From Bacteroidota bacterium (GTDB lineage Bacteria > Bacteroidota > Bacteroidia > Cytophagales > MED-G16): a stretch of 32,524 nt of DNA. Under the pieces are notes generated by a model, which was not told where the DNA came from, made no database searches, and saw only the letters and a program-made list of their open reading frames with translations. Each line of letters begins with the position of its first letter. Position 1 is the stretch's first letter. The stretch lies in contig JAYZHZ010000118.1 in NCBI GenBank assembly GCA_036166035.1, positions 1-32,524 of the forward strand, written 5' to 3'. A program made the translations under genes and the position numbers. Of the stretch, positions 2,821 to 27,908 are shown one piece after another.

Positions 2821-4173
2821 CTATTTTTTAGAAATTATATTTTGAGTTAAATCAAGATTTTCTATAACAAAATTTCCAACTTTATCTCCTTGATCAACTC
2901 CATATGTTATGGCCGGCATATAATGAATTCCACCCCATATTCTACTTATTGCTGCCTCATCAGAAGCTTGAATAAATGAATCAAATTTTCTTGCTTTGAG
3001 ACCATAAATTTCTTCAGTAGTATCTAAAAATTCAAAGTTATTTCCTAACAAAAAAGTAAGAATATTAGCTGCTGATCTTGAAATTACAGAGTGTCCTGAT
3101 GTGTATTCAGGAAAAGGTGGAGTCTGAAGCAAAGGGATCCAGTCTTCATCAATGTATTGATTAATTAACGTCTCAGGTCTTACAAGTATGCTTCTCCATT
3201 TTTCATCCCAACATACAATAAAGGCATCAAATAAACCTATTGATACCATAGAATAAGTATGGATTGTTTCCATCAAATTTAACTCTGCTTTTTTTGAAGC
3301 AATCTTTGTTATTCCTATCCAATGACCACCAGGAGTTATTTTTTTTGTTGCAAACATTGCATGCCCTCTATGATGAGAAACATATGGATTACAGTCCCAG
3401 AAACTTGCAACATCTTTTTGTTCTTCAGTTAAATTATTACCAATCTCATATACTTCAATAAGATCTTTATAGAATTTTGAAGTTTTGTCAAGACTAAATT
3501 TAGGTGGTGGAGTAATTATAAATTGATTTGAAGAATCTATTACTAATGTTCTTATTTTATTCCAGTGAGGTTCGATTCCTTCCATATAATCTGGAGGGGT
3601 TGGTTTCCAAGATTCTTCGTCATCCCTTTGAATTGTATATTTTGGAAACGATCTTGTCTGCTTATAATTGTCTTCATTATACCATTTTTTAATGTGATTG
3701 GCAACCTCATCACCATAAGCTATTGAACGATCATATATATCTTTAGGAATACCTTTTTCTTTTAATTTTTTAAAAATATCTTTTTGAAACTCATTGATTT
3801 TATTTTCAGAAAAAATCAAATCTTTTCCAATAGTAATAAATGCATGCAAACTAGCAACTGGAAATGAATACTCCTTATTCAAATCAGGTTTTGGAACAGC
3901 ATTTAATCCATTAAGCTGGCCAGCAAAACTTTTATATTTTGGATAATCATTAATTAAAACTTCATAAGCAGCAATAGTTGGATAAACATAAATTCTTGAT
4001 GCTACTGGTGGCGAAAAAATATCATATACAATAACATCTGTTAATTTTTGCATTGATTCATGAAAAAGATTAGGATCTTCGTATGCATTTAAATTATTCT
4101 TATATTCTTCATATGAAGAACATGAAGAAAAAAAGAAAAAAATTAATAAAAACTGAAAGATTTTAATGTTCAT
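2821..4173 (-). CDS. Vanadium-dependent haloperoxidase (PAP2 superfamily), lipoprotein; flavobacterial iodoperoxidase-like
   Basis: Complete vanadate/phosphate-binding motif set: CWDEKWRSILVRP (K..RP), TPPFPEYTSGHS (SGH) and SRIWGGIHY (R..H). The FWDCNPY..FATKKITPGGHW segment is typical of Bacteroidota VHPOs and, from memory, resembles Zobellia galactanivorans VIPO1. Lipobox FFSSC. ATG at 4173 is preferred over the track's TTG at 4176. Confidence 0.88.
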   Translation of the reverse strand: MNIKIFQFLLIFFFFSSCSSYEEYKNNLNAYEDPNLFHESMQKLTDVIVYDIFSPPVASRIYVYPTIAAYEVLINDYPKYKSFAGQLNGLNAVPKPDLNKEYSFPVASLHAFITIGKDLIFSENKINEFQKDIFKKLKEKGIPKDIYDRSIAYGDEVANHIKKWYNEDNYKQTRSFPKYTIQRDDEESWKPTPPDYMEGIEPHWNKIRTLVIDSSNQFIITPPPKFSLDKTSKFYKDLIEVYEIGNNLTEEQKDVASFWDCNPYVSHHRGHAMFATKKITPGGHWIGITKIASKKAELNLMETIHTYSMVSIGLFDAFIVCWDEKWRSILVRPETLINQYIDEDWIPLLQTPPFPEYTSGHSVISRSAANILTFLLGNNFEFLDTTEEIYGLKARKFDSFIQASDEAAISRIWGGIHYMPAITYGVDQGDKVGNFVIENLDLTQNIISKK

Positions 4174-7100
4174 CAACCAAACTTATTATGGAAAGTCTAT
4201 CGTCATTTTTTCCAAGAACAAATTTAGATTTATTTTTATCCAAAGGCAAAACTTTAGTAATATCACCCCTTATTTTTAATCCTGATTTTGCCTGATTTAT
4301 ATAATTAAAAGTGGCATTACCATTACCATTTAATAAAATCCCGTAGCTGGAATCGAATGATCCAAAATAAGTTGAAACACTTGAAAGATTTCCAAATAAT
4401 AATATATCCAAAATATTATCATTATTATAGTCTAATACTTGAATATCTCTAACCGGCGAAATCTGACTAATTAATGGTAACTCTTTTACTGAGAATGATT
4501 CTCCATCATTTATAAATAATATAGAGCTAAATTCATTGGTAAATAAAACTTTATTTTTTGATAATATTTCCTCTGAAAAAATTTCATTAATATCTAGGCC
4601 TGCAAAATCTCTGTAATAAAAGAAATCTCGATTTAAATAATTTAATTGTTTGGTTAACTCATCTTTATTTGAAACTGGAAACTCTTTGGAACCCTTTTTG
4701 TAAGTTATAATATGTTCAATATTCGAATTATTATCAAAATCACCAACATACATTTTTATAGGATTTTCATTCGTTGGTTTAAGTTTTGAATTATTACCAA
4801 TGTTTCCTGCAATAATATCCATTAACCCATCATTATTAAAATCTGCTGTTTCTATTGAGAACCACCAACCAAATTTTTTATTGCCTATAAAATCAGTATC
4901 CTCACGTAATTTACCATTCTCATTAATTAAAATTTTTATATTATTCCAATCTCCACATGTAATCAAATCTTTAATTCCATCCCCATTCATATCTTCCCAC
5001 TTTGCATCGGTAATCATCCCGAAATTCTTCAGAATGTTATTATTATCGATTTTGAAGGAACCATCACCATTGTTAGTTAAAAGATAACTTACTGGAGAAT
5101 AACCATATTCACCCGGAACTACTCTTCCTCCCACAAATAAATCTTGATCACCATCCTGATCATAATCATAATTTATTACAACCGAACCATGTTGATAAAT
5201 TTCAGGTAACCCTTTTCTATTTATAAATTTTCCTTTCTCATTAATGTATAATCTATCTTGAATGCTTTTGACATTTAGAGGATATTCATTCCCTGCACTG
5301 ACAACATAGAGATCTTTATCACCATCATTGTCAGCATCAAAAAACAATGCATCAACATCTTCAGATAAATAATCATTCTCTATTTCATTTTGAGGAAGGT
5401 ACTTATAATTTCCAGAATTCTCACCCAAAAATAATTTTGATTTTTGAAAAGACGGAGAACCAATATAAACATCTAAAATATTATCATCATTTATATCTGA
5501 TACAGCTATTGCGGGTCCTTCTCTTGATAGCATAAATGGAATTAGTCCTTCCCTGTTGAAATCATTAAATGAGTTTTCTTTATGAGAATAATTTATCTTA
5601 ATCATATCAGAGATATCAGAAAAAATCGGATTTGAAATATTTTTTTTCTGAAATACTTTATCTGATGCTTTCTCATACAAATCAATCTTTTGATTAGCCT
5701 TTATTGAATATATCTTTTGTGTTTTTAGAGAAGGCCAAATAACCTGCAATGAATCTATTTCTTCTGTAGTACCAATCCCAAAATTTAGACCAGAAGATTT
5801 AGTAGACATAAAACCCCTATTTAAAAAATTTTCCTTATAAATAACATTATTATCAAACCAAATTATAACTTTTGCTCCAATCCCAAAATAATTATACTTT
5901 TCACCTTTAAATGAAATTTTTAAATGATTATTATTTAACATATCTTTTGTTTTGTTCTTATAGAGAATTGCTTGATCATTTATATTATTTAATATAAAAT
6001 CTTGATCTCCATCGTTGTCAAAATCATCGTATGTTGCTCCATTAGAATACCCATTAAAATCTAAGCCCCATTCCTTAGATACGTTCTTAAAATTTAAATT
6101 TGACAAATTTTTAAATGCATAATTTTTTACTTTACCATCGGGCATTTCTTTTAACAGATCTTGATTATCTAAATCAGGATTCTGGACAAGACCATAATTT
6201 AATTTTTCGTTGGATATAAAGTTGATATAATCCATATCATTCGGTCTTTTTACAATGCCATTTGTTATATATATATCCTTATAACTATCTAAATCAAAGT
6301 CTTCAACCAAAGTCGACCAACTCCAATCTGTAGCATGAATATCCATGAGTTGTGATATTTCTGAGAAAGAATTATTTCCATTATTTAATTGAAAAGTATT
6401 TCTAGTAAACTGTTTATTAAAACCAAATTCAAGTTTCAGTTTATAAATTTCATACGAATCTTCTCCTGCTGAACTCTTCAAAACTTTCTCATCCTCTGGG
6501 AGCATATCCAAAACTAAAATATCAGGATATAAATCATTATTAATATCTGAAATATCATTACCCATTGAAAATCTTGAAGTATGATTTATATAATTTTCTA
6601 AACTTTCTTTAAAGGTTCCGTTACAATTGTTAATATATAAATAATCATTTTCTCTAAAATCATTTGATACATAAATATCATCGCAGCCATCCCTATTTAT
6701 ATCACTAATCGAAATACCCAAACCATAGCCTATGTTGCTGCCCAAAATACCAGCCTCTTCAGATACATCAACAAAAAATTGTTTTCCTTCACTCATTTCA
6801 TTTCTAAAAAGTTTATCACCAGACTTCTCATTTCTTGAAAATCTCAATTTATAATTTCCGTAACTTCTTTCAGTATGCACTGAATGATTTAAAAGATAGA
6901 TATCTAAGTCACCATCACCATCATAATCAAAAAAGGCAGAATGAGTGGAAAAACCTTCAAAATCAAGACCATATTCTTCAGCTCTTTCGGTAAAAGTAAG
7001 ATCACCATTGTTAATAAATAATTGGTTTTTTCCTGAAATATTTTTATAACCGCCAAGTCTAGTTTGGTATATATCTATAAAACCATCTCCATTTATATCA

Positions 7101-7435
7101 ACCATATTAACTCCAGTTTTCCATTCTTCTTCTGAATTTAATCCTGCTTTTTCAGTAATATCAGTAAAATTGAGATCTCCCTTATTTAAATATAACTTAT
7201 TGGCCCCTTGATTAGATGAAAAATATATATCAATAAGACCATCATTATTTATATCACCTGTTGTGACTCCACCACCATTATAGAAGTATAGGTACTCTAT
7301 TAAATTAAACTTTTCATTTTCAACTAAATCATTTCTAAATCTAATATTTGAAGTGTTTTCAGAAACTTTTTCAAACAAAGTATTTTCTTCTTTACACGAA
7401 AAAATTAAAAGAATTATTAAAAATCTATTTATCAT
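4163..7435 (-). CDS. FG-GAP/VCBS-repeat + ASPIC/UnbV-domain lipoprotein (CRTAC1-like), paralog 1
   Basis: Many DxN/DxDGxxD Ca-binding blades (GDINNDGLIDIYF, DYDGDGDLDIY). Family motifs YFYNGGG, SMGND, DMLP and TDWSW; central UnbV-type segment GIGAKVII..RGFMS..LNFGIG..SLQVIWP. Lipobox IFSC followed by KEE. ATG at 7435 overlaps the upstream stop (TGATG). Confidence 0.88.
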   Translation of the reverse strand: MINRFLIILLIFSCKEENTLFEKVSENTSNIRFRNDLVENEKFNLIEYLYFYNGGGVTTGDINNDGLIDIYFSSNQGANKLYLNKGDLNFTDITEKAGLNSEEEWKTGVNMVDINGDGFIDIYQTRLGGYKNISGKNQLFINNGDLTFTERAEEYGLDFEGFSTHSAFFDYDGDGDLDIYLLNHSVHTERSYGNYKLRFSRNEKSGDKLFRNEMSEGKQFFVDVSEEAGILGSNIGYGLGISISDINRDGCDDIYVSNDFRENDYLYINNCNGTFKESLENYINHTSRFSMGNDISDINNDLYPDILVLDMLPEDEKVLKSSAGEDSYEIYKLKLEFGFNKQFTRNTFQLNNGNNSFSEISQLMDIHATDWSWSTLVEDFDLDSYKDIYITNGIVKRPNDMDYINFISNEKLNYGLVQNPDLDNQDLLKEMPDGKVKNYAFKNLSNLNFKNVSKEWGLDFNGYSNGATYDDFDNDGDQDFILNNINDQAILYKNKTKDMLNNNHLKISFKGEKYNYFGIGAKVIIWFDNNVIYKENFLNRGFMSTKSSGLNFGIGTTEEIDSLQVIWPSLKTQKIYSIKANQKIDLYEKASDKVFQKKNISNPIFSDISDMIKINYSHKENSFNDFNREGLIPFMLSREGPAIAVSDINDDNILDVYIGSPSFQKSKLFLGENSGNYKYLPQNEIENDYLSEDVDALFFDADNDGDKDLYVVSAGNEYPLNVKSIQDRLYINEKGKFINRKGLPEIYQHGSVVINYDYDQDGDQDLFVGGRVVPGEYGYSPVSYLLTNNGDGSFKIDNNNILKNFGMITDAKWEDMNGDGIKDLITCGDWNNIKILINENGKLREDTDFIGNKKFGWWFSIETADFNNDGLMDIIAGNIGNNSKLKPTNENPIKMYVGDFDNNSNIEHIITYKKGSKEFPVSNKDELTKQLNYLNRDFFYYRDFAGLDINEIFSEEILSKNKVLFTNEFSSILFINDGESFSVKELPLISQISPVRDIQVLDYNNDNILDILLFGNLSSVSTYFGSFDSSYGILLNGNGNATFNYINQAKSGLKIRGDITKVLPLDKNKSKFVLGKNDDRLSIISLVDEH

Positions 7436-10400
7436 CAATTGTAGATGTATGATTGTAAAGTATCATTATTGTTAAGAACAAATAATAAATTTGAATTTAA
7501 TTTATTTCTGACATTTATTATATCTCTTACTTGTCCTTTAAATAATATTCCAGACTGAGAATTTGGAACTTTTTCAAAATTTTTGTTCTTGTTTCCGAGT
7601 AATATCAAACCATAGTTAGCATCATATCTTCCAACTTCAGGTTTTACATCATACAAATTCCCTCCCATAATAATATCCTTAAAACCATCTCCATTGTAGT
7701 CATCAACATGAATTGCATGAACAGTTGAAAATTGTGTTTCAATTGGTGTATTTATTTTATTAAATTTTGCAGAATCATTAATCAATATTAGTGTGTTCAA
7801 TTCATAAATATTATTCCTTACGCTTGAATTTATTTTTTTATTAGAAAAAATATCATTAACTGTCTGATTTTTATAGCTATTGTATTTCAGATATTTCTTT
7901 TTAAGAGTTGGCATCTGCATAACCAAATCATGTCTTAGTGCCATAGTATATGCACTATCCCCATTATATTGAAATATTATTTGTTCAATACTATTATTAT
8001 CATCAAAATCATTTATATACATTGATATTGGTTTACTTTCACTCGCACTAAATCTAGAATTAATTCCATGGTTACCAATAATAAGATCATCGTATCCATC
8101 AAGATTTAAATCCTCAACATGTAAAGCATTCCACCAGCCATTTGTTTTATCAAAAGATTCAACATCTTTGATTTTATATGAACCATCTATATTCTCAAAA
8201 AGTGTAATTGGCATCCAATGTCCAACCAATATAATATCAATATCTCCATCCATATCATAATCCGTCCACTCTGCATCAGTTATCATTCCAATTTTATTTA
8301 GTTCAGGAGCTATCAAATTACTTACATTAGTAAAATTACCCTTACCATCATTATTTAATATGTAACCATTTGAAGGCATCCCATATTTCTGTGGCACTAA
8401 TCTTGTTCCCACAAAAAGATCCTGATCTCCATCATTGTCATAATCATAATTTTTTACGACCGAAGAGCTTTCAAACAAACCCGCTGGAAGGATTTGATTA
8501 GATTTTATTAATTTCAAATTATAATTTAAATATAGTCTATCTCTTAACTCGGGTGAATAAACTGAAAACTCATTACCACCACTAGTAACATAAATATCTA
8601 AATAACCATCATTATTAGAATCGAAAAAAACACAGTCTGTATCCTCTGATTCTCTATCTTTTTCAAGAACATTACTATAATAAAGATCAAATGAATTTTT
8701 CTTTTGAATATATATTGAAGCAGGAAAACCCTTTGAACCACCAATATAAATATCTTCTAACCCATCATTATTTAGGTCCCCAGAGCATAGACAAGATCCT
8801 TCAGATGAGCTCATATGGAAAAGCAATCTATCCCTATCAAAATCAACAAAATTATTTTCCTTATGAACAAAATCAATCAATCTTTCTTCTGATTCTTCTA
8901 AAAGATTAGTTACATAATTTTTATTATAGCTATCTAAAATTATTCCATCAGATTTATGTATAACTACTTTTTGATTTGGAGTTATATCATATTTTTTTGA
9001 GTAAGATCCATCATCCCATATAACTATAAGAGAATCAATACTATTACTTTCTCCAATTCCAACTATTAAATTATTATCTACTGTAGATTGGAATCCTCTA
9101 ATAGGCATTTGTTCTAACATATAAGTATTTCCCATTGAATAGATATATACTTTACTTCCTATACCATTAACATTATCCTTAGTCCCAACTAACTCTACTT
9201 TAATATAATTATTATTTGGAAATAAAATATCAGTATTATTTCTATAAACAAATGTTTTCATATTTACATTATTGACTACTAGATCATAGTCACCATCATT
9301 ATCAAGATCTCCATATGCAGAACCATTTGAAAAGCTTGGTATATCTAGACCTAATGACTTAGTTGCATCTTCAAATTCTAATCCACCATTATTTATGAAC
9401 GCATAATTTGAAATTGGAACACTGGGAATAAGTTCAATCAATTTTTTAAAATCAACATTACCTGGAGATGCAATTTGATCAATAACTTCATCTTGTGTAA
9501 CATATTGAAGAAAATCTTGATCCGTTAGGTCTTGATATATACCATTTGCAACGAAAATATCTTTTTTTCCATCATTTTGAAAATCAAACATTAAAGCACC
9601 CCAACTCCAATCTGTAGCTTCAACTCCTGCTAATCTTCCAATTTCACTAAAAGTTCCATTTCCATTATTTAATTGAAGAGTATTTCTGGTAAACTGATTC
9701 CAATAACCACTGGACTTTATAAATTGATGTCTATCCCAATTATCAAATGTGGTTACAGTCTTAATTCTATCATCTGTTTCCGGTAACATATCTGTTACAA
9801 AAATTTCAGATAACCCATCATTATTTAGGTCCGCCATATCTGCACCCATAGAAGCCGCACTAATACTTTTAATTTGATTTTCAAGTTCTTCTGAGAATGT
9901 ACCATCCTTATTATTAATGTATAAGTAATCCCTTTCAAAAAAATCATTTGAGACATATATATCCATCCATCCATCATTATTTGCATCACCAACTGTTACA
10001 CCCAAACCAAAACCAATAACACTACCATAAATACCGGCACTACTACTGACATCAATAAATTTCCCATTATCATTTCTAAAAAGTTTATCTCCACCTACAT
10101 TGTCTCTAACAGGTCTTTGGTCTTTTCCAATGTTTGTAATCCTAAAACCACCTTTATAAGAATTATTTAATAGATAACAATCTAAGTCTCCATCTTTATC
10201 ATAATCGAAAAAAGCAGCATGAGTAGAATACCCTCTATCATCCAGACCATATTCAGACGCACTTTCAGTAAAAGTTAAATCACCATTATTTATAAATAAC
10301 TCGTTCTGTTTATTATCCCCTTTAATATCTCCTGAGTTTGAAACATAAATATCTAAAAAACCATCAGCATTAATATCCACAATACTCACTCCTGTGCTCC

Positions 10401-10725
10401 AAGATTTAGTGCCACCCACATTTGCCTTCTGTGTAATATCTTCAAACACAAAATTTCCTTTATTAAGGTATAATTTATTCTCACTAAGATTAGAAGTAAA
10501 ATATATATCAATTAAATTATCATTATTTATATCTCCTAATCCTACTCCTCCCCCATTATAATAATTTCTGTATGTGAAAATGTTAAACTCTGGTTTATAT
10601 AAAAGTTTGTTCTCAAAAAAAATTTTTGTTTTATAGCTTGACAATTCCTCGAAAAGCAAATCTTCTTGAGATGAACAAGAACAAATAATCATTATTAATA
10701 CAAGATATATTAATTTTCTGTTCAT
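7435..10725 (-). CDS. FG-GAP/VCBS-repeat + ASPIC/UnbV-domain lipoprotein, paralog 2
   Basis: 1096 aa with the same architecture: YYNGGG, SMGAD, DMLP, QFTRNTLQLN, TDWSW, GIGSKV..PIRGFQST..DSLIVIW. Lipobox ICSC. Confidence 0.88.
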   Translation of the reverse strand: MNRKLIYLVLIMIICSCSSQEDLLFEELSSYKTKIFFENKLLYKPEFNIFTYRNYYNGGGVGLGDINNDNLIDIYFTSNLSENKLYLNKGNFVFEDITQKANVGGTKSWSTGVSIVDINADGFLDIYVSNSGDIKGDNKQNELFINNGDLTFTESASEYGLDDRGYSTHAAFFDYDKDGDLDCYLLNNSYKGGFRITNIGKDQRPVRDNVGGDKLFRNDNGKFIDVSSSAGIYGSVIGFGLGVTVGDANNDGWMDIYVSNDFFERDYLYINNKDGTFSEELENQIKSISAASMGADMADLNNDGLSEIFVTDMLPETDDRIKTVTTFDNWDRHQFIKSSGYWNQFTRNTLQLNNGNGTFSEIGRLAGVEATDWSWGALMFDFQNDGKKDIFVANGIYQDLTDQDFLQYVTQDEVIDQIASPGNVDFKKLIELIPSVPISNYAFINNGGLEFEDATKSLGLDIPSFSNGSAYGDLDNDGDYDLVVNNVNMKTFVYRNNTDILFPNNNYIKVELVGTKDNVNGIGSKVYIYSMGNTYMLEQMPIRGFQSTVDNNLIVGIGESNSIDSLIVIWDDGSYSKKYDITPNQKVVIHKSDGIILDSYNKNYVTNLLEESEERLIDFVHKENNFVDFDRDRLLFHMSSSEGSCLCSGDLNNDGLEDIYIGGSKGFPASIYIQKKNSFDLYYSNVLEKDRESEDTDCVFFDSNNDGYLDIYVTSGGNEFSVYSPELRDRLYLNYNLKLIKSNQILPAGLFESSSVVKNYDYDNDGDQDLFVGTRLVPQKYGMPSNGYILNNDGKGNFTNVSNLIAPELNKIGMITDAEWTDYDMDGDIDIILVGHWMPITLFENIDGSYKIKDVESFDKTNGWWNALHVEDLNLDGYDDLIIGNHGINSRFSASESKPISMYINDFDDNNSIEQIIFQYNGDSAYTMALRHDLVMQMPTLKKKYLKYNSYKNQTVNDIFSNKKINSSVRNNIYELNTLILINDSAKFNKINTPIETQFSTVHAIHVDDYNGDGFKDIIMGGNLYDVKPEVGRYDANYGLILLGNKNKNFEKVPNSQSGILFKGQVRDIINVRNKLNSNLLFVLNNNDTLQSYIYN

Positions 10726-11291
10726 TTATTTAGTTTTTTTTCTGCAATTAAATCTGAAAACCTCACTCTTACTTCCATATCATCTTTTATCGAAATAACT
10801 ATTCTTCTATTGCCTTTAACAGTTACGAATAATTCTTTATCCGAATCTTCATCTTTTATTCGTATAAATTTAGATTTATACCAATCTTCCATAGTTTTTT
10901 TTATTTCTAGAATAAGTTTATCTGAAAATAAATGTCTATTCCAAGGAGCCCATGATGCATATGAAAAAGTCGCATTCATTTCATATATTTTATCTTCCAT
11001 AAATCTTGGATAAAAAAGCATTTCAATTATACCATTAATAGAATCTTCTTTGAGAATATATTTTACTGAATTATTAGATGGACCTTGAATTATCATTTGA
11101 TTTTTATTCATTTTCCAGCAGTGATCATAAAATTCCTTTGAAGACATATTGAATTTTATTCCTAAAAAAAGAGAATCATAACGCATACCAGATAACATCT
11201 CTCTTTTTTCAAGTGATTTATAACTACTTTCTTTACATGAATTAATTGATAAAATAATTAAAATGAATAAAATTAATTTAACGTATTTCAT
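10722..11291 (-). CDS. Hypothetical lipoprotein (189 aa), unknown function
   Basis: Signal peptide with lipobox INSC. ATGA overlaps with both neighbours (10722-10725 and 11288-11291), which supports a real operon gene. No catalytic motif that I recognise. Confidence 0.8.
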   Translation of the reverse strand: MKYVKLILFILIILSINSCKESSYKSLEKREMLSGMRYDSLFLGIKFNMSSKEFYDHCWKMNKNQMIIQGPSNNSVKYILKEDSINGIIEMLFYPRFMEDKIYEMNATFSYASWAPWNRHLFSDKLILEIKKTMEDWYKSKFIRIKDEDSDKELFVTVKGNRRIVISIKDDMEVRVRFSDLIAEKKLNK

Positions 11292-16239: not shown

Positions 16240-16259
16240 AATTTATAATTTTTAAAAAT

Positions 16260-19498: not shown

Positions 19499-19523
19499 AA
19501 TTTATTTAAGTAACCTAAGTAAT

Positions 19524-21218
19524 TTAGTGACCAGAATTTTGCACTAAAACTCCTCCACTACCATCTATTGCAACAATAGGTATAGGGAATAGATTATGCT
19601 TATCCTGATAAGATTGACCTCTTGCAAAAGAAGTTATAACTTCAGATTCTTTAGCAAAATAAGTATTCATAACACTTTTTGCATTGCCCCATCTCCTTAA
19701 GTCAAAGAGACGATGACCTTCCATAGCTAATTCCAATCTTCTTTCAAATCTTACAGCTTTCCTAGCATAATCTGCACTAGGAAAAGAAGTATAAGGTTCG
19801 ATTACATAAGTAGGTCCTGAATCAGGTGCAGTCATATTCTTAGCTCTGTTTCTAACTTGATTAACATAGTCCAAAGCTTTTGATAAGTTACCTGTTTCAA
19901 CAGCTGCCTCAGCAGCCATCAAAAGAACATCAGAGTATCGCATGAAATGATAGTTGATACCCGATCTTTGTTCTCCCCATCCTCCAGTACCTCTGTTGGC
20001 ATCATCACCATTCCAGTAATGATTTTTCTTAGGAAGATAAGGTCCTGATATATCATCAAAACTTGCTCTAATCCAATCTTTACCTACCATAGGTCCATAT
20101 CCATTATAATCAATTCCTCTCCTTCCAACTGTATAATCAAGTCTAGGATCTAGATTACCAGTATGAGGAGTGAATGGATCACCTGAATTAACCTTATAGT
20201 CATTAGTAACATGAGAATTTTGATATGTATCTAATAATGGCAAGCCATTTGCGTCAGTCTGATATGCATCAACCAAATCTTGGGAAGGTTGGTAGAATCC
20301 ACAACAAGTTCCTAAAGGACCTCCTCCTGGAAAATTCAATGTACCACCTTTATTCCCCTGATTAGAAACACCTCCATCAGATGCAAACTGAATTGCAAAA
20401 ACTGATTCTGAACTGTTCTCACCAGTTGATTTAAAGTTTTCAACATATTCTGAATTCAAAGCATATGCTCCTGAACCTATAACTGCATCTAGTGCAGCTA
20501 ATGCTTCACTCCATTTACCTTGGTGTAGATAAACCTTACCTAAAAATGCTCTTGCAGCATGCGATAAAGGTCTACCCGCTTCAGAATAAGAACCAGATCT
20601 AGAACCCGGCAAGTTAGTAGCAGCATACGTGTAGTCTGCTTCAATATCTGCCCATGTTAGAAGCGTTTCTCCAGCATTTGGTAGATTATATTCAAGAGCA
20701 GCAGCAGACTCTGGAGTTATATCTGGAACATTTCCAAATTTTAACTTGAGTTGCATGTTAAAGTGTGCTCTTAAGAACATAGCCTGAGCCATTTGAACTG
20801 AATAATCTGCAGGATTATCACTTCCATTTATTAGATTAATAACAGAATTAGCTCTATTTACTCCAGAAAAAGGAGCTTTCCAAAGACCTAACCAGTAACC
20901 ATTACCAGTTGCCCAGTTATATACCTCTATATCGTAAAGGTCTGCCTGATCACCGTCAGTACTACCCTTATGAGCGTCATCTGCAATGACATCCATCCAC
21001 CAGTTATCACCACTACTTGTCCATCCTCCTTGAGTATTTGTTTGTCCATCAAGAACCGAATAAACACCAGTTAGTAGCAAATCTATACCAGTAGCGTTTG
21101 CTAAGTTATCATCACTTAATGCTCCATATGCTGGAACTTCAGTAAATGATTCATTACAAGCATTAGTAACAAATAAAACTAATGAAATACTTAAAATAAA
21201 TGTTTTAAAATTTTTCAT
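19524..21218 (-). CDS. SusD/RagB family outer-membrane substrate-binding lipoprotein (pair B)
   Basis: Lipobox TNAC. Motifs AQAMFLRAHF..FGNVP, ESVFAIQF, DPRLDYT, MRYSDVLLMAAEA, VNQVRNRA, VRFERRLELAMEGHRLFDLRRWG and FPIP..QN. Confidence 0.95.
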   Translation of the reverse strand: MKNFKTFILSISLVLFVTNACNESFTEVPAYGALSDDNLANATGIDLLLTGVYSVLDGQTNTQGGWTSSGDNWWMDVIADDAHKGSTDGDQADLYDIEVYNWATGNGYWLGLWKAPFSGVNRANSVINLINGSDNPADYSVQMAQAMFLRAHFNMQLKLKFGNVPDITPESAAALEYNLPNAGETLLTWADIEADYTYAATNLPGSRSGSYSEAGRPLSHAARAFLGKVYLHQGKWSEALAALDAVIGSGAYALNSEYVENFKSTGENSSESVFAIQFASDGGVSNQGNKGGTLNFPGGGPLGTCCGFYQPSQDLVDAYQTDANGLPLLDTYQNSHVTNDYKVNSGDPFTPHTGNLDPRLDYTVGRRGIDYNGYGPMVGKDWIRASFDDISGPYLPKKNHYWNGDDANRGTGGWGEQRSGINYHFMRYSDVLLMAAEAAVETGNLSKALDYVNQVRNRAKNMTAPDSGPTYVIEPYTSFPSADYARKAVRFERRLELAMEGHRLFDLRRWGNAKSVMNTYFAKESEVITSFARGQSYQDKHNLFPIPIVAIDGSGGVLVQNSGH

Positions 21219-21230
21219 ATTTCTTATTTT

Positions 21231-24200
21231 TTAAAATGTAACATTTAATCCTAAAGTAGTAACAACTGCTTGAGGATATTCTCCCGAATCAACACCTAAA
21301 TTAAGTGGCGAACCACCCACTTCAGGATCCATTCCTGAGTAACCGCTTAAGGTAAGTAGGTTATTTCCAGAGACATAAATTCTCGCATTTGAAATACCTA
21401 ATTTACTAGTAGCACTACTTGGAAGTGTATATCCAATCTGAATTGTTCTTAACTTAACGTAAGAAGCATCCTCAACAAACCATGAGTTAGGTTGAGTTTC
21501 AGCATTAGAAATAGTTTCACTCAATGCAGGCATATCTGTATCAGTATTTGATGAAGTCCATGAATCTAACACATCTGCATGCCTATTTCCATTAAAGAAA
21601 GTAGGGAAATGTGAATAAATTTTATTGTAATGGTATACATCATTACCGATAGAACCATTTAAGAATGCGTATAAGTCAAAGTTATTATAAGCTAAACTTA
21701 CACTAAAACCAAATGTGAAATCAGGATGAGGAGAACCAATCTCAGTTCTATCATCATCATTGATTGTACCATCGCCATTAACATCCTCGTATTCAAACCT
21801 TCCACTAGAATCAAGTCCTTTAACTTTACGTCCGTAAAAATAAGACATAGACTTTCCAGGACTAGTTCTTGTTATTGCTCCACCTCTATATCCTGTACTT
21901 CCTAAGAAGAAGTTACTAATAAGACTATCAACAGTATTATTGTATTTAGATAAATTAAATCCTATATCATAACTAAAATCACCTGAAGCATCAGCATAAT
22001 TCAATGCTAACTCAATACCAGAGTTTGTTACCTGCCCAATATTAACTAGAGGAGCAGAAGCATCAATTGCAGTAGTTCCAATAAGGTTGTTATCAACAGC
22101 AATTAAGTCATTGGTCTGAATGTTAAAATAATCTAAAGAACCATACAACTTATTATTTAGCAGTCTAAAATCAAGACCTAAATTTTGAGAAACTACAGTC
22201 TCCCATTTTAGATCAGGATTACCAACAGCAGATAATGCAGCACCTGTAGTTGCATTTGATCCATTAAATGGATAATATGCATTTGCCTCACTTAAACTTG
22301 AAACGTTTTGGTCAGGAGCAGTTCTTCCTAGTGATTGATTTCCTAGAGTACCATAAGAAACTCTCAATTTCATATAATTATCTGAATTAAAGAAATCTTC
22401 CTCACTAATAACCCATCCAAAACTTCCGGAAGGGAAAATTGCGTTCGCATTTGCCCTAGCAAATCTTGAAGTATTGTCTTGCCTTACTGTAGCAGTAACA
22501 AGATACTTATCCGAGTAAGCATAGTTTACAGTCAAGAATGCTGAATTAATTGTATAAGCATTTTGTGAAGCCCACTGAACAACTGGCGTACCAGCACCAT
22601 TACTCAGTAAATAGAAATTTGGATCTTCAAAAAGATACTCATTTCTAGAGACCTCATGACCTTTAAAATTTTTCTTTAAAGCCTCGTAACCTAACAATGC
22701 ATCAACACTATGTGAGCCAAAATCAGCTCTATAGTTAAGAGTGTTTGTTACGTTCCAGTTATACTCTCTGAAGCTTTGTTCATACAAAGTATTAACAGAC
22801 TTTGGTTCACTGTGTTCAGGATCTAGATAAGCAAACCTCCTATTATTAAGATCTCTCATCATACCTGCCGCAACAATTTTATAATCAAGTCCTTCTACAA
22901 TATTTATGTTTGCATAAACATCACCAAAAGCTCTAAAGGATCTATTATAATTATTTTCTGATCTCATAAGATTAGCGTACGGACTATTCATATTTCCAAG
23001 TCCCGCTGAAGCCTTATAAGTACCAGCATAATTACCATTATCGTCCAAAAGAGGAATAAGAGGACTAGATCTATATGCTCCTTGAACTTGATTCCCCTGA
23101 TTTTCTTGATCATAAGAAACGTTCAAATGTTCTCCAATTGTGATTCTATCATTCACTCTGAATTCACCATTCATCCTTGTTCTTCCAGTCTTATATCCAG
23201 TCATAATTTGAGCTCCTTGTCTGTCAAGATATTCCATCGACATTAAGAACTTGCTATCTGAACTACCACTAGAAACTGTTACCTTATATTGCTGTGCTAA
23301 ACCAGGATCAAAAATAGCATCCATCCAATCCGTTCCATTTGGATTTACAGTAGCCCCAACATCTATTCCCTGTAATTTACTAGGAATAACAGGACTTCCA
23401 CCAGAACCATATTGTGGATGATTTGGAGTTGCTCCATCATTTAACTTAGACTGCCAAATCATATCTCCATGCTGTTGAGCATTTAAAAGAGTTGGAAGAT
23501 TTGTAGCATAAGTTGACCCAACGTAAGTTTCAAAAGTGACTGTGTTTTTTTGACCATAACTACCATTCTTAGTAGTAATCACGATAACACCATTAGAAGC
23601 CCTTGCACCATAAATTGCTGCAGAACCATCTTTTAGAACATTAATTTGTTCTATATCGGAAGGACTTATACTTGATAAAACATACGGATCATCAGTTTGA
23701 ACACCATCAATTATATACAGTGGGTTATTATCATTTGGAGTAGCATAGCCTCTGATTCTAACAACTGGTGCTGAACCTGGTTGACCGTTTCCAATGACTG
23801 ATATACCAGTTACCCTACCTTGAAGTAATTCAGCTGAATTCACAACAGGAGTTTTAACTGCACTGCCAATGTCTACTGAAGAAATTGCTCCAGAAAGACT
23901 TTTTCTAGTTTGTGTTTGATAACCCGAAACAACAATTTCATCCAAAAATTCTGTGCTCTCAGATAAGGTAATAACTACTCTTGCCTGAGATCCAACTGAA
24001 ACTGTCTGTGTCTCATACCCAACAAAACTAACTTCTAACTGATCATCAGACGAAGCACTTATTGAAAAGTTTCCATCTATGTCAGTTACTGTACCATTTG
24101 TAGTACCTGCAACTATAACACTAGCTCCAGGTATAGGATTTCCACCTTCATCTTGAACTGTTCCACTAACATCTCTTTGAGAGAATGCAACCGAAACAAC

Positions 24201-24239
24201 AAGAAATAGGATGGAAAACAAAGTAATAAGTTTTTTCAT
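21231..24239 (-). CDS. SusC/RagA family TonB-dependent transporter (pair B)
   Basis: Start moved to ATG 24239 (MKKLITLFSILFLVVSVAFSQ is a clean signal peptide) instead of the track's 24284. Motifs LDEIVVSGYQ, NPLYIIDGV, DIEQINVLKDGSAAIYGARASNGVIVITTK, NPDLKWET and C-terminal LGLNVTF. Confidence 0.96.
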   Translation of the reverse strand: MKKLITLFSILFLVVSVAFSQRDVSGTVQDEGGNPIPGASVIVAGTTNGTVTDIDGNFSISASSDDQLEVSFVGYETQTVSVGSQARVVITLSESTEFLDEIVVSGYQTQTRKSLSGAISSVDIGSAVKTPVVNSAELLQGRVTGISVIGNGQPGSAPVVRIRGYATPNDNNPLYIIDGVQTDDPYVLSSISPSDIEQINVLKDGSAAIYGARASNGVIVITTKNGSYGQKNTVTFETYVGSTYATNLPTLLNAQQHGDMIWQSKLNDGATPNHPQYGSGGSPVIPSKLQGIDVGATVNPNGTDWMDAIFDPGLAQQYKVTVSSGSSDSKFLMSMEYLDRQGAQIMTGYKTGRTRMNGEFRVNDRITIGEHLNVSYDQENQGNQVQGAYRSSPLIPLLDDNGNYAGTYKASAGLGNMNSPYANLMRSENNYNRSFRAFGDVYANINIVEGLDYKIVAAGMMRDLNNRRFAYLDPEHSEPKSVNTLYEQSFREYNWNVTNTLNYRADFGSHSVDALLGYEALKKNFKGHEVSRNEYLFEDPNFYLLSNGAGTPVVQWASQNAYTINSAFLTVNYAYSDKYLVTATVRQDNTSRFARANANAIFPSGSFGWVISEEDFFNSDNYMKLRVSYGTLGNQSLGRTAPDQNVSSLSEANAYYPFNGSNATTGAALSAVGNPDLKWETVVSQNLGLDFRLLNNKLYGSLDYFNIQTNDLIAVDNNLIGTTAIDASAPLVNIGQVTNSGIELALNYADASGDFSYDIGFNLSKYNNTVDSLISNFFLGSTGYRGGAITRTSPGKSMSYFYGRKVKGLDSSGRFEYEDVNGDGTINDDDRTEIGSPHPDFTFGFSVSLAYNNFDLYAFLNGSIGNDVYHYNKIYSHFPTFFNGNRHADVLDSWTSSNTDTDMPALSETISNAETQPNSWFVEDASYVKLRTIQIGYTLPSSATSKLGISNARIYVSGNNLLTLSGYSGMDPEVGGSPLNLGVDSGEYPQAVVTTLGLNVTF

Positions 24240-24377
24240 TTTATACTTTAGTTTACTTAAAATAATGAGGAGAAACATGTCCATTCAGTACTCCCCTCAT
24301 ACTGATAAAGTATTTAAATAATACTTGCGGACCCCTAAATTTATAGAAATGTTAACAGAATGAAAAATGATTCCTAT

Positions 24378-27300
24378 TTAAAAATCAAACCTTACAATAC
24401 GCGTAGGTTTATTTGAACTATATACTTGGATGCTATCTATAGTTTCATTCAATAAGATTTTTCTTGAAGATTGAGATAAAAATGAGTTGCCATGGTAAAA
24501 TTCTTTTCTATACATTTTACCATTCTCATAAACATCAGCAATATTTTCATCCGGTTCTAACGCAACAGAAAACTTTTTATCATGATTAACTTTATAGGAT
24601 ATCAATTTGTCCTTATTCTGACCAACCAGTATTATATAGTTATCTTCAGATACCAATAATGCAGAAGATTTTGAGTCCCCAGGAACATAGAAACCAGAGT
24701 TATTAATTTCAATAGGTTTAAAAAATTCACTGTTTCCAAGAAGTACTAAGCCATTTAATGCATCATATCTTCCCATTCCTATCTCTGAACCATAATCATT
24801 GCCTACTAATGCAATATCATCAAAACCGTCACCATTAAAATCTTCAATTATTGATCCATATATTTTAGAGATCTGGGCTTCATCGGGTAAATCAATAATC
24901 TTAAATTTACCATCTCCAAGATTTTCAATATAAACGGAGGAAAAATAATTTACTTTAAATTTAGATACCTGAGAATTGTTTAGATTCATTTGTTGAATAA
25001 GTTGTTTAAAAGTGACCCTACCAAAATCTTCATGAAGAATATACTTTCCTCTTATATCTATAACTTCTTTCTGGAATTCATGTCTAGTAAAAAATGGATA
25101 CAGCTTATAATTACCTTTCTCATCTTTAAAATATGCTGAGGGAAAGAAATCTTTAAATTTATTACCATCAAAATCGGAAGAATAAACTAAGATTTCATTG
25201 CTTTCATAATTCAGCAAGGTATTTTTTCCAATATTTCCAACTATATAATCAATGTCTCCATCTTTATCAAAATCAGAACCATTAATACTATTCCAAAAAC
25301 CAAAATAATTTTCAATTCCATTTTTTTCAACCTCCTCAAATACATTACCATTATTCCTAAATATTCTTATTTGCATGTACTCTCCTACAACAATCAAATC
25401 TGATTTATTATCATTATCAAAATCAGTCCATATCGCATCAGAAACTAATCCTATAGAATTCAGCTGAGGAGCAACCTTATCATTAACTATTAAAAATTTA
25501 TTCTCACCTTTGTCCAATTGATTCTGAAGTATAAAACTGGTGGCCGGTGTTGGATAATCTTGAGGAACTAATCTACCACACACAAACAGATCTAAATCAC
25601 CATCATTATCATAGTCACTAGCTTTTACACATGATCCACTACTTAAAAAATTTGGAATTATGCCTTCCGATAAAACAAAATTACCACCATCATTTATAAA
25701 TAATTTATCGGTATATGAAATATGCATTGAATCAAATTCATTACCTCCACTTACAATGTATAAATCATTATCCGAGTCGTTATCAAAATCAAAGAGTAAT
25801 ACCCCCAATTCTTCTGAAGAAAATGTCAAATCTGAATCACTAAATAATTTCTGTTCATTGAATGATCCATCCTTTTCCTGAATAAAAAAGGTTCCCGAAT
25901 AATTTCGTGATCCACTAATGTAAAAATCATCTAGCTCATCTCCATTAATATCTTGAACTGAAATTCCTGGACCAAACTGAGATAGTTTATGATATAACAA
26001 AGGCTGGTAATTAAAATCTATAAAATCTAGTTCTTTATGATTATATGGAATATTGATTTCAGAAAACAACTTCAATGGTCTGTCATCAGTTTTAGATTTA
26101 TAATTTATATTCTCATCATATACTAATTCAATAGATGTATTTACCTGTAAAGAAAGGTGTTTATTTTTATGTCCATCAGGCCAGTGAATTATAAGGCTAT
26201 CTATAGATTTTGAGTCAGATAAACCAAAATGAATAATATTTTGCATAGAGGACAAATACCCTCTGAAAGGATTGTTTTCATAGAACTTGTATTTCCCTTC
26301 AGAAAATAATTCAACTGTTGCACCTATTGCATTTATATTATTCTCTTTTCCAACTAATTTTATTTTTATCCAATTATTCTCATTGAACTTCTCTGAATTA
26401 TTTTTAAAAACATTTGCTTCTCCATCAATATTATTTACTATATAATCCAAATCCCCATCATTATCTAAATCTCCATGAGCCGCACCATTTGAGAATGTAG
26501 GTTTAGTTATTCCCCATTTTTCAGTTACATCTTCAAACAACACAATTCCATTATCTTCAGAAATATTTCTAAAAGCATAATTTTTTAATTTGACTTCAGG
26601 AATAATCGATAGAAGCGTCTCTTTTTTAGTAAATCTTGCTATCTGAGTTTGGTAGTCAATAAAATCCCTATCCGTAATATCTTTTGGAAAACCATTTGTA
26701 ATTATTAAATCATTAAAACCGTCATTATCATAATCACCAACAATTGGAGCCCAGCTCCAATCCGTTCCACTCACTCCAGACATCATTGCTATCTCAGAGT
26801 ATATTGGTTTATCATTAACAAATCCTTGATTTTGTTGCAAGGTATTTCGAACAAATTGATAAGCATATTTGTATCTATCATTATTTATATATGTATTATA
26901 ATTATTCTCAGTAAGCATAGTTTTCCTCCTGAAATTATCATCCGGCATCATATCAAGTTCAATTACTTCATTTAATCCATCGTTATTAAAATCAATAATA
27001 TTATTACCCATTGATGAATAAGAAGTATGCTTAAAATATTCAGATGACTTATCCGTAAATGTTCCATCTTTATTATTTATCCACAAAAGATCGTTTGTTA
27101 AATAATCATTTGACACAAATATGTCTTTCCAACCATCTTGATTCAGATCAGATACACATACTCCCAAACCAAAACCTTCAATTAAAATGCCTGCCTCCTT
27201 AGTCACATCAGTAAAATATGGATGACCCAATTCTTTAATAAAATCATTTCTTAAAAGTTTATCATTCTTAGGAGATGTTCCATCCACAACTTTTTTTCTG

Positions 27301-27908
27301 TACTGATTAGGTTGTTTATACTTGTCCATTTCATTTATTAGAAGGTAAACATCTAAGTCTCCATCATTATCATAATCAAAAAAACTTGCGTTAATGTTAT
27401 GAGAGGAATCATCTAGCCCATATTCAACCGCCATTTCTTTAAAAACAGGAATTCCTTCACTATTAACCCCTAGATTAATATACAAAAGATTGGATCTTAA
27501 CTTTTCAGGATTATACGTTGAACATGATATGTATATATCTATCAATCCATCTTGATTTATATCAATTATTGAAACTCCTGATGACCATCTTCCATTTCCT
27601 CCAATATTTGCTATTTGAGATATTTCATTAAATTTCCAGTTTCCTTCATTTAAATACATTTTATTTCCTACCATATTTCCGGTAAAAAATATGTCCTGCT
27701 TTCCATCATTGTTAAAATCTGCAATAGCAGCACCTCCACCATTATAGAGATATTCATAATCAAGAATATTCATCGAATCATTTTCTGAAATTAAATTATT
27801 AAAATAAATCCCTGTATGTGATGATTCCATCTCTTCAAATAATGCTTTATCCGTACAACAGAAAAAGAGAATACTGATAAGTAAAAAATTTAATTTGTTA
27901 TAAATCAT
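24378..27908 (-). CDS. FG-GAP/VCBS-repeat + ASPIC/UnbV-domain lipoprotein, paralog 4 (with C-terminal extension)
   Basis: 1176 aa, lipobox LFFCC. Motifs YLYNGGG, SMGNN, DMMP, QFVRNTLQ, TDWSW and AIGATV..PFRGYLSS..IIHFGL..DSLIIHWPDG. The start overlaps the galE stop (ATGA). Confidence 0.88.
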   Translation of the reverse strand: MIYNKLNFLLISILFFCCTDKALFEEMESSHTGIYFNNLISENDSMNILDYEYLYNGGGAAIADFNNDGKQDIFFTGNMVGNKMYLNEGNWKFNEISQIANIGGNGRWSSGVSIIDINQDGLIDIYISCSTYNPEKLRSNLLYINLGVNSEGIPVFKEMAVEYGLDDSSHNINASFFDYDNDGDLDVYLLINEMDKYKQPNQYRKKVVDGTSPKNDKLLRNDFIKELGHPYFTDVTKEAGILIEGFGLGVCVSDLNQDGWKDIFVSNDYLTNDLLWINNKDGTFTDKSSEYFKHTSYSSMGNNIIDFNNDGLNEVIELDMMPDDNFRRKTMLTENNYNTYINNDRYKYAYQFVRNTLQQNQGFVNDKPIYSEIAMMSGVSGTDWSWAPIVGDYDNDGFNDLIITNGFPKDITDRDFIDYQTQIARFTKKETLLSIIPEVKLKNYAFRNISEDNGIVLFEDVTEKWGITKPTFSNGAAHGDLDNDGDLDYIVNNIDGEANVFKNNSEKFNENNWIKIKLVGKENNINAIGATVELFSEGKYKFYENNPFRGYLSSMQNIIHFGLSDSKSIDSLIIHWPDGHKNKHLSLQVNTSIELVYDENINYKSKTDDRPLKLFSEINIPYNHKELDFIDFNYQPLLYHKLSQFGPGISVQDINGDELDDFYISGSRNYSGTFFIQEKDGSFNEQKLFSDSDLTFSSEELGVLLFDFDNDSDNDLYIVSGGNEFDSMHISYTDKLFINDGGNFVLSEGIIPNFLSSGSCVKASDYDNDGDLDLFVCGRLVPQDYPTPATSFILQNQLDKGENKFLIVNDKVAPQLNSIGLVSDAIWTDFDNDNKSDLIVVGEYMQIRIFRNNGNVFEEVEKNGIENYFGFWNSINGSDFDKDGDIDYIVGNIGKNTLLNYESNEILVYSSDFDGNKFKDFFPSAYFKDEKGNYKLYPFFTRHEFQKEVIDIRGKYILHEDFGRVTFKQLIQQMNLNNSQVSKFKVNYFSSVYIENLGDGKFKIIDLPDEAQISKIYGSIIEDFNGDGFDDIALVGNDYGSEIGMGRYDALNGLVLLGNSEFFKPIEINNSGFYVPGDSKSSALLVSEDNYIILVGQNKDKLISYKVNHDKKFSVALEPDENIADVYENGKMYRKEFYHGNSFLSQSSRKILLNETIDSIQVYSSNKPTRIVRFDF

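Follow-up and report, generated by a model that had tools for sequence, protein, structure and literature searches.

In the SusCD assemblies known as utilisomes the transporter pair has extra surface lipoproteins (surface glycan-binding proteins, SGBPs), and the transporter BtuB carries a capture lipoprotein, BtuG, that is a beta-propeller. The locus described here, on the minus strand of a 32,524-nucleotide contig (JAYZHZ010000118.1, the whole of which we call the window) from a metagenome-assembled genome (MAG) of a marine Bacteroidota bacterium, follows a similar logic, with propeller lipoproteins accompanying TonB-dependent transporters and lipoprotein genes directly downstream of susD, where surface-binding proteins are usually encoded. 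Yet neither sequence nor any specific feature of the fold links its lipoproteins to those known proteins: the FG-GAP/UnbV propellers of the window are much larger, come as paralogue trios in a fixed order and travel with a vanadium haloperoxidase (VHPO). They are closer to CRTAC1 (PDB 9ETN) and to UnbV/E4 of enediyne clusters, with which they share the combination of an FG-GAP propeller and a UnbV_ASPIC domain and, in the case of CRTAC1, the fold (see below), whereas they differ from both in being tandem double modules of ~1100 amino acids (aa), in being lipoproteins and in their coupling to VHPO and SusC/D. To our knowledge, neither CRTAC1 nor UnbV/E4 has an assigned biochemical function. Pfam reports no EGF domain in the FG-GAP/UnbV proteins of the window.

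The closest characterised relative of the VHPO is Zg-VIPO1 of Zobellia galactanivorans (PDB 4CIT/4USZ), deposited as a vanadium-dependent haloperoxidase and cited as an iodoperoxidase (PMC5064120, and in passages of PMC9296495). In the literature it is discussed for iodine and halogen metabolism on macroalgae, unlike the window VHPO, which lies in an apparent SusC/D-propeller-glpK operon of a planktonic bacterium with a small genome. Another Bacteroidota organism, Arenibacter sp. C-21, has at least five VIPO homologues, and its accumulation of iodine needs glucose, oxygen and calcium or hydrogen peroxide, the uptake depending on calcium and on a source of peroxide (PMC5064120). The parallel in the window is a VIPO-type enzyme together with calcium-binding propellers and a possible peroxide source, a GlpO-like enzyme; no genes were assigned in Arenibacter, however, and a role of SusC/D and propellers in iodine uptake would be pure conjecture. 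Comparable in transporter and presumed cargo are the predicted trehalose (alpha-1,1-glucan) polysaccharide utilisation loci (PULs) PUL103 and PUL116, listed for two North Sea Flavobacteriia in passages of Kappelmann et al. 2019 (PMC6298971), which also report a related SusC-like protein at 0.19 %NSAF (normalised spectral abundance factor) in a bloom metaproteome, i.e. strongly expressed in situ. These PULs are likewise SusC/D-based, and homologues of the window cassette in other families carry a GH37 trehalase (glycoside hydrolase, GH) after the VHPO; the window itself, in contrast, has none. The main-text passages of that paper mention neither FG/UnbV nor VHPO, and the likeness of PUL103 and PUL116 to the window cassette is a tentative one. 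Our literature search covered open texts (subscription papers and supplements lay outside it) and found no publication on a cassette of SusC/D, FG/UnbV and VHPO. Judged by title and abstract, the papers listed for UnbV do not deal with PULs or VHPO, and those listed for the CRTAC1 propeller do not deal with bacterial homologues.

The core of the locus, delimited from the sequence alone in an earlier note on this DNA, spans positions 2821–27908 (25,088 bp, minus strand) and contains two SusC/SusD pairs, four FG-GAP/UnbV_ASPIC lipoproteins (FG1 to FG4), a small lipoprotein of 189 aa (U189) and the VHPO. Domain calls with Pfam and NCBIfam, complemented for the VHPO by a PDB sequence search, bear out this co-directional gene content. 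From position 1 to 31229 all open reading frames (ORFs) of at least 120 aa lie on the minus strand. In the direction of transcription, the order is two SnoaL-like lipoproteins, galK, galE, FG4, SusC_b, SusD_b, SusC_a, SusD_a, FG3, U189, FG2, FG1, VHPO, glpK and a GlpD/GlpO-type flavoenzyme that is cut by the window end. A lipoprotein-type start (a hydrophobic signal followed by Cys) can be read in the sequences of VHPO, FG1 to FG4, U189 and both SusD proteins. From FG3 through GlpD the genes overlap or sit no more than 4 nt apart, which is operon-like, and the largest intergenic gap (321 nt) separates the two SusC/D modules. Judged by spacing and synteny, glpK and glpD appear to share a transcription unit with the cassette and galK and galE probably do so too, so that the borders drawn in the earlier note were too narrow. 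Its estimate of some 13 kb spent on four paralogues was accurate (the four FG genes sum to 13,395 bp), and its argument that such a cost suggests selection gains weight from two near-complete relatives (G007 and G022; our labels for genomes, contigs and loci begin with G, C and L), which have only two SusC genes above the TIGR04056 cut-off, one of them that of this cassette.

Measured against a PUL, the locus has the adjacent susC/susD pair twice, and among its Pfam domains in 2821–27908 there is none of a glycoside hydrolase, a lyase, an esterase, a sulfatase, a peptidase or a regulator; in PUL terms there are no GH, polysaccharide lyase or carbohydrate esterase domains in this interval, no regulator domain in the window and, for a trehalose-type PUL, no GH37 trehalase in the window. 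The claim that the locus lacks carbohydrate-active enzymes (CAZymes) holds for 2821–27908, in this lineage only, and fails as a property of the locus type, since cassettes of other families include GH37, GH65 and GH13. The cassette is a variant of the PUL idea and not a new kind of system, and the propeller-VHPO pair is its unexplained core. Tentatively, and a little short of an even call, we read the locus as the streamlined form of an outer-membrane uptake cassette that is widespread in Bacteroidota and composed of SusC/D, CRTAC1-like propellers, a small orphan lipoprotein and a VHPO, with the mechanism proposed below.

Conservation of the cassette is strict among close relatives. The MAG (1.29 Mb, 65% completeness; the window is its contig C118) belongs to a GTDB family represented by 25 genomes of 1.0–1.8 Mb, and relatives at 94–96% completeness measure 1.5–1.7 Mb. 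The order SusC_a-SusD_a-FG3-U189-FG2-FG1-VHPO-GlpK-GlpD is identical in all seven relatives examined, from three genera, and 19 of the 24 other family genomes have a VHPO homologue at 70–80% identity. Three genomes without VHPO (G012, G018 and G019; 74%, 87% and 54% complete) also have no UnbV match, and in the other two (G016 and G017) UnbV matches occur only in frames apparently cut at contig ends. VHPO and FG/UnbV genes that were not syntenic with SusC/D in relatives would have spoken against the earlier note; in fact they are syntenic in seven of seven, and the arrangement recurs across families. One genome also carries an extra pair of an FG gene (1085 aa) and a VHPO (421 aa), followed by a type I phosphodiesterase/nucleotide pyrophosphatase (L156, G013:C78, 124–6266); the signals of this extra pair are not of the lipoprotein type.

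The pair extends well beyond the family. Among 301 Bacteroidia genomes (tallies include G190, from which no locus was taken), 67 contain VHPO-like genes and 151 UnbV_ASPIC. We took the best VHPO locus per family in 20 families, labelling ORFs by phmmer with the window proteins, and found an FG/UnbV gene of ~1100 aa adjoining the best VHPO homologue in 16 of them, in one case as a fusion; SusC/D was in the same cluster as VHPO in five of the 20. By rough arithmetic (423 UnbV matches in 301 genomes) the chance of an FG neighbour within 10 kb is about 1–2%. A further set of 80 named genome loci, with VHPO identities of 52–76% and not including Zobellia, shows upstream FG genes in 28 of the 43 loci that have a 10-kb upstream flank: three in 18, two in nine and one in a single locus. 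Where three FG genes are present their order is fixed, with an FG1-like gene at position -1 and an FG2-like gene at -2 in 21 of 21 loci and an FG3-like gene at -3 in 14 of 21, and the FG trio is therefore old and ordered. FG4-type genes, searched for in 70 metagenome loci (many at 43–46% identity), are often part of a compact SusC-SusD-FG-VHPO quartet: of 39 complete genes with a downstream flank, the VHPO is directly next in nine and within 8 kb in 15, and SusC/D lies upstream in 16 of 29. The surmise of the earlier note that the arrangement is probably conserved and not unique was therefore sound. Carriers include Chryseolinea, Ohtaekwangia and Haliscomenobacter, which we take to be soil, freshwater or sludge taxa.

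Gene fusions connect the two proteins still more closely. Contig C115 of the same MAG encodes a 1356-aa protein with FG-GAP, UnbV_ASPIC and a VCPO-type domain plus a type IX secretion system (T9SS) sorting tail. Among 17 longer VHPO homologues there are seven FG/UnbV-VHPO fusions, in which the domain order equals the gene order of the separate genes, and one fusion each of VHPO with GH37, GH20 and GH97; the rest are six proteins of ~865 aa (two PAP2-type stretches in P0002, the one scanned) and one VHPO with a secretion tail. In the three glycosidase fusions, all metagenomic, an N-terminal Zg-VIPO1-like domain precedes a GH37 trehalase (P0001), a GH20 chitobiase-type hexosaminidase (P0006) or a GH97 domain (P0016). 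As genomic evidence, these fusions argue strongly for joint action of the VHPO and the propellers, and in some organisms also of the VHPO and exo-glycosidases. We consider it highly probable that the propeller-VHPO pair is one functional unit tied to uptake. As a separate observation, the SusC/D-FG-VHPO cassette of G065 contains, at 14352–16254 of L046 (G065:C86), an AhpC/TSA-like protein and a 440-aa protein that weakly matches, below cut-off (E 9.5e-4), the C-terminal domain model of copper type II monooxygenases.

The VHPO gene (2821–4176, minus strand) encodes a 451-aa Zg-VIPO1-type lipoprotein of the PAP2 superfamily whose signal peptide ends in FFSSC. In the PDB sequence search it matches 4CIT/4USZ at E 5.5e-151 over practically its whole length (residues 5–443 on chain residues 11–449 of 4CIT), and Pfam gives a weak, sub-threshold PAP2 match. 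Across an alignment that includes homologues of as little as 34% identity, seven residues (K326, R333, S360, G361, H362, R412 and H418) never vary, and all seven align with the same residues in 4CIT, where they presumably form the vanadate site. The corresponding motifs, K...RP, SGH and SR...H, are common to acid phosphatases and VHPOs; because PAP2 acid phosphatases have the same motifs, sequence alone cannot separate a haloperoxidase from a phosphatase, and we keep haloperoxidase as the default reading. The gene overlaps FG1 by 14 nt, and glpK starts 4 nt past its stop. A predicted complex of FG1 residues 22–595 with VHPO residues 30–451 scored 0.05 against a mark of 0.32, a result that speaks neither for nor against binding.

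Of the propeller genes, all on the minus strand, FG1 (4163–7438, 1091 aa), FG2 (7435–10725, 1096 aa) and FG3 (11288–14584, 1098 aa; the first gene after SusD_a) are of similar length, and FG4 (24378–27908, 1176 aa), the partner of SusC_b and SusD_b, belongs to another subfamily of ~1170–1205 aa. Each has FG-GAP_3 (PF13517) matches at E 1e-59 to 1e-63 and one UnbV_ASPIC domain (PF07593) at E 1e-14 to 1e-17, above cut-off, as well as 9–11 motifs of the DxDxDG type (nine in FG1, 11 in FG2); pairwise identities among the four are 36–50%. AlphaFold2, given 35 homologues, models FG1 with confidence (pLDDT 90.7, pTM 0.91), and the best Foldseek match of the model is murine CRTAC1 (9ETN_A, E 9.5e-27, TM-score 0.72 on the target). 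CRTAC1 is also the sole specific match among the 50 listed; the others are generic two-propeller proteins (DDB1, SF3B3, GH74) with TM-scores below 0.3. The model and the domain matches suggest that FG1 is a tandem of two CRTAC1-like modules. Invariant alignment columns are mostly Asp, Asn and Gly of the DxDxDG-type calcium loops, with W372, W374, M292, M312 and Q992 as invariants outside these loops and H619 and E621 nearly so, and neither the alignment nor the FG1 model indicates a catalytic centre. We infer that the propellers are calcium-stabilised binding or scaffold proteins.

As read from the sequence, two SusC/D modules stand in tandem before the one VHPO, all on the minus strand. In module A the TonB-dependent transporter SusC_a (16260–19202; TIGR04056 650 bits against a cut-off of 368) is followed by the lipoprotein SusD_a (14680–16239; Pfam SusD_RagB, PF07980, E 2e-31) and then by FG3, U189, FG2 and FG1; in module B, which is variable, FG4 precedes the transporter SusC_b (21231–24284; TIGR04056 799 bits, above cut-off) and the lipoprotein SusD_b (19524–21218; PF07980, E 1.2e-47). 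The modules are only distantly related (SusC_a and SusC_b 31%, SusD_a and SusD_b 25% identical), and both SusC proteins are without an STN domain. SusD_a is 70–88% identical among relatives, and orthologues of SusC_a head the cassette in relatives and also in G211, G285, G288 and G168. The FG4-SusC_b-SusD_b module was found in only one of the seven relatives (G005); in G023, a SusC on contig C4 that scored like SusC_b belongs to another locus, where phmmer detects neither FG nor VHPO within 20 kb, and was set aside. A metagenome contig (L161, FG4 70% identical) has galK-galE-FG4-SusC_b-SusD_b-VHPO-GlpK without module A and, with module B alone before VHPO-GlpK there, two alternative modules appear to share the slot before one VHPO.

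The other SusC of G007 and G022 also has a propeller and a VHPO. It heads a locus of SusC, SusD, a 311-aa lipoprotein, an FG/UnbV-VHPO fusion, an arylsulfotransferase (ASST), a ChrA chromate transporter and a sulfotransferase (L227, G022:C2, 2148–15704), and the end of this second SusC/D locus is visible on C115 of the window's own MAG (L001, G000:C115, 10004–19182). Since both SusC loci of these genomes have a propeller-VHPO, the partnership is a general companion of SusC/D uptake in the lineage; G023 has a third SusC without FG or VHPO partners. The sulfotransferases hint at phenolic or sulfated substrates for the second locus. In G007 (L228, G007:C11, 5872–9958) the fusion gene appears as two overlapping ORFs of 944 and 426 aa, either a frameshift or a natural split form.

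What such a cassette might take up is suggested by its homologues. In G211 a Pfam-confirmed LacI regulator lies upstream of SusC, and downstream of the cassette come a GH37 trehalase lipoprotein, GlpK, GlpD and a pair of GH13 genes; by Pfam, G288 has GH37, G285 and G168 have GH65 beside the VHPO, and G285 has also an SSF symporter. In L184, L185 and L192 a LacI-like gene upstream of SusC was labelled solely by phmmer. Of the 43 named loci whose downstream flank is 8 kb or more, 12 hold GlpK downstream of the VHPO, 11 GlpD and 10 each GH37, SSF and GH13, and clustering of the unlabelled ORFs of all 80 named loci yielded GlpF/MIP (12), MFS (10), ROK kinase (nine), beta-phosphoglucomutase-like HAD (four) and PfkB (four). 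Of 32 named loci with both flanks, 23 have FG, and 14 of these 23 also have GH37, GH65 or GH13. Given the GH37, GH65 and GH13 enzymes, the importers and GlpF/K/D in homologous loci, the locus type is an alpha-glucoside/trehalose and glycerol utilisation locus whose surface apparatus is unusual. In the window's family a real GH37 match (PF01204) was found in one of the 25 genomes and GH65 in none, and GH13 is a single gene of ~935 aa elsewhere in the genome, in 12 of 25. The family thus appears to have a reduced version of the locus type, its glycosidases lost or never possessed.

Glycerol genes directly follow the VHPO. Glycerol kinase GlpK (1335–2816, minus strand; TIGR01311 709 bits against a cut-off of 590) is syntenic in all seven relatives, and it overlaps by 16 nt the gene of a GlpD/GlpO-type glycerol-3-phosphate dehydrogenase/oxidase (1–1350, minus strand, C-terminal end off the window; Pfam DAO E 8e-48). 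GlpF is next after GlpD in G007, and VHPO-GlpF-GlpK-GlpD are contiguous in L131 and L147. The best NCBIfam model for the window's flavoenzyme is type 1 glycerol-3-phosphate oxidase (380 bits; GlpD models 289 and 263 bits). With full-length orthologues included (L023, 1356–2954; L037, 4384–6024; L131, 13561–15258), the oxidase model gives 380–517 bits (cut-off 840) and the GlpD models 289–356 bits (cut-off 360), and the alignment to the oxidase model falls in two stretches. All scores are below their cut-offs, and the enzyme could be an oxidase that forms hydrogen peroxide or a dehydrogenase. Upstream of the cassette, galactokinase GalK (28933–30051, minus strand; TIGR00131 273 bits against a cut-off of 227) has counterparts in the same place in four of the seven relatives (G007, G008, G015 and G022) and in contigs L160 and L161. 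The UDP-glucose 4-epimerase gene galE (27905–28939, minus strand), whose stop overlaps the FG4 start, has an in-frame TAA (28736–28738) that splits the Rossmann N-terminus (28739–28939) from the remainder (27905–28735; TIGR01179 325 bits for this part after the stop). The gene is also split in metagenome contig L179 (99% identical) and full-length (349 aa) in L160 and L161; the TAA may be a genuine nonsense mutation, or else an error common to the two assemblies.

Under the mechanism that we propose, the propellers, stabilised by calcium, would be substrate-capture or scaffold subunits at the SusC/D complex and not glycan-cutting enzymes. The VHPO would be physically attached to the FG1-type propeller and would use hydrogen peroxide and halide to modify the captured cargo or the surroundings at the cell surface. 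The cargo may be a small glycoside or a carbohydrate of the osmolyte type that resembles trehalose or a glycosyl-glycerol; its glycerol moiety would feed GlpK/GlpD, and its galactose moiety, in this organism, might perhaps feed GalK/GalE. Module A and module B would be alternatives that happen to stand in tandem here before one VHPO.

Several observations weigh against this proposal. In 15 of the 43 named loci with a full upstream flank there are no upstream FG genes at all. In 11 of the 16 families in which FG and VHPO adjoin, the pair has no SusC/D, so that it is not tied to uptake, and some of its neighbours in such loci resemble, by eye only, polysaccharide-synthesis genes. Iodide is scarce in soil, freshwater and sludge, the habitats of some carriers. 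Given how rare GH37 and GH65 are in the window's family, a trehalose-like cargo would find no known hydrolase there, and a galactosidase was likewise not seen. Moreover, the PAP2 superfamily placement with its conserved motifs, the N-terminal fusion of VHPO domains to the exo-glycosidases GH37, GH20 and GH97, and the phosphodiesterase behind the extra FG and VHPO pair of G013 would fit a phosphatase as well as a haloperoxidase. The VHPO-like lipoprotein would then act as a PAP2-type phosphatase; its substrates, bound to the propellers, would be phosphorylated glycosides, glycerophospho-compounds or teichoic-acid-like phosphoglycans, and the glycerol and sugars set free would be taken up and broken down by GlpF/K/D, trehalase, GH13 and enzymes of that kind. 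The glycerol genes that directly follow the VHPO in the window, as in 12 of 43 named loci, and the presence of the cassette in non-marine taxa agree with such a role. We nevertheless judge it unlikely: the nearest characterised homologue is the haloperoxidase Zg-VIPO1, the loci showed neither a Pho-type regulator nor a phosphate transporter, and the regulators that were found, of LacI or ROK type, point to control by sugars.

The same glycerol genes can be read as a source of peroxide. In this case GlpF-GlpK and a GlpO-like oxidase would make hydrogen peroxide from glycerol and a surface iodoperoxidase would oxidise iodide to hypoiodous acid, for iodine uptake and accumulation, antagonism to neighbours or peroxide detoxification, the propellers being calcium-dependent anchors only. 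The preference of the flavoenzyme and its full-length orthologues for the oxidase model, the contiguous VHPO-GlpF-GlpK-GlpD genes, the needs of Arenibacter described above and the AhpC/TSA-like gene inside the G065 cassette are in line with this. It is nonetheless rather improbable, as every oxidase and dehydrogenase score is below its curated cut-off, ambient seawater iodide and hydrogen peroxide are far below the enzyme's reported Km, and SusC/D, the three conserved propeller paralogues and the GH37, GH65 and GH13 of homologous loci are left unexplained. More doubtful still is a reading in which FG/UnbV and VHPO would be a new extracellular redox accessory module of TonB-dependent uptake systems in Bacteroidota: peroxide fuelled by glycerol would supply a propeller-docked haloperoxidase, and the hypohalous acid formed at the transporter would oxidise, release or trap cargo, a service extended to both cut-off-passing SusC/D systems of G007 and G022. 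The earlier note offered two roles for the FG-GAP/UnbV propellers, unrecognised enzymes or substrate capture. The first, with the propellers as substrate-cleaving enzymes (lyase, hydrolase or esterase) in place of CAZymes, could explain why the window's family, nearly devoid of GH37 and GH65, has kept three or four propeller genes, and why three ancient paralogues persist in fixed order. Calcium-dependent beta-propeller lyases and phosphoesterases are known, and the non-calcium invariants and near-invariants listed above might serve catalysis. The check that the earlier note suggested, structure prediction and a Foldseek search for a catalytic pocket, was run on FG1 and gave no enzyme-like match: no propeller lyase is among the 50 matches listed and no catalytic family is prominent, the GH74 resemblance being that of any double propeller (TM-score 0.18–0.24, rmsd 25 Å). 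With invariant columns that are mostly calcium-loop residues, and with ordinary glycoside hydrolases that co-occur with the propellers in other families and are not replaced by them, we find enzymatic propellers quite unlikely. Short gaps are usual in a streamlined genome and synteny within one family could be inheritance, so that VHPO, propeller, glpK/glpD and SusC/D genes might be unrelated and packed together by coincidence; the adjacency in 16 of 20 families, its recurrence in the 80 named and 70 metagenome loci and the independent fusions leave this a next to negligible probability.

Among the remaining genes, U189 (10722–11291, minus strand; 189 aa) is a small conserved lipoprotein with a WAPWN motif and no Pfam or NCBIfam family above cut-off. 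Its homologues lie between FG3 and FG2 in all seven relatives and in 22 of the 80 named loci. The AlphaFold2 model (pLDDT 94) has no Foldseek match in the PDB at E <= 0.001, and the best hit of a wide VIA-align search (Z 7.5, an Rhs immunity protein) does not rise above the stated background; a relationship to UTRA/GntR effector domains was considered and dropped, the resemblance being weak. In the ESM Atlas it falls only in Bacteroidota 'hypothetical protein' clusters. U189 thus appears to be a Bacteroidota-only orphan with a confidently predicted, unmatched fold.

At the upstream end two small SnoaL-like lipoproteins (30137–30646 and 30672–31229, minus strand; Pfam SnoaL_2) precede galK, and at least one such gene is found at the same position in five genomes (G002, G007, G008, G015 and G022) and in contig L160. 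A divergent GH20 beta-N-acetylhexosaminidase (31367–32524, plus strand, cut by the window end; Pfam Glyco_hydro_20 E 2e-63) is the sole CAZyme of the window and lies 3.5 kb past the upstream end of the locus. It is syntenic in five relatives and at the same position in contig L160, and the G065 cassette is also adjoined by a GH20. The G+C content is 0.34–0.36 in the SusC/SusD genes against 0.27–0.30 in FG, VHPO and the genes that flank the locus. The rise (window 14001–24000) may stem from amino-acid composition or from the level of expression; horizontal transfer was set aside as a cause, these genes being syntenic in every relative. Rfam at the gathering threshold detects no RNA family in the window, and the four intergenic regions inspected hold no meaningful repeats.

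The DNA of positions 2821–12800 is nearly whole (0.92–0.98 of sampled words) in 19 DNA runs from seawater or marine metagenomes, which represent 11 named studies, with one further run that names no study; some of them may be the source of the MAG. Near-identical DNA in 19 marine runs marks the organism as widespread in seawater, and we regard it as a widespread planktonic marine bacterium.

VHPO and a CRTAC1/UnbV-like propeller form a conserved, sometimes fused genetic pair that in many Bacteroidota is linked to SusC/D and to trehalose/alpha-glucoside and glycerol catabolism. Cultured carriers exist, among them Fulvivirga sp. M361, whose locus L115 has the order SusD-FG-FG-GH65-VHPO-GH37-SSF-GlpD-GH13-ROK, and Spongiivirga sp. 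MCCC 1A20706 (L092). Were the VHPO-like protein a phosphatase, the annotation of the whole 'iodoperoxidase' clade would need revision. Were the pair a redox module, nutrient capture would be aided quite generally by the chemistry of halogens and peroxide. If, as in the reading we prefer, the VHPO acts on cargo at the transporter, nutrients would be captured on a principle that is new, and the cycling of carbon and halogens in the sea would be affected.

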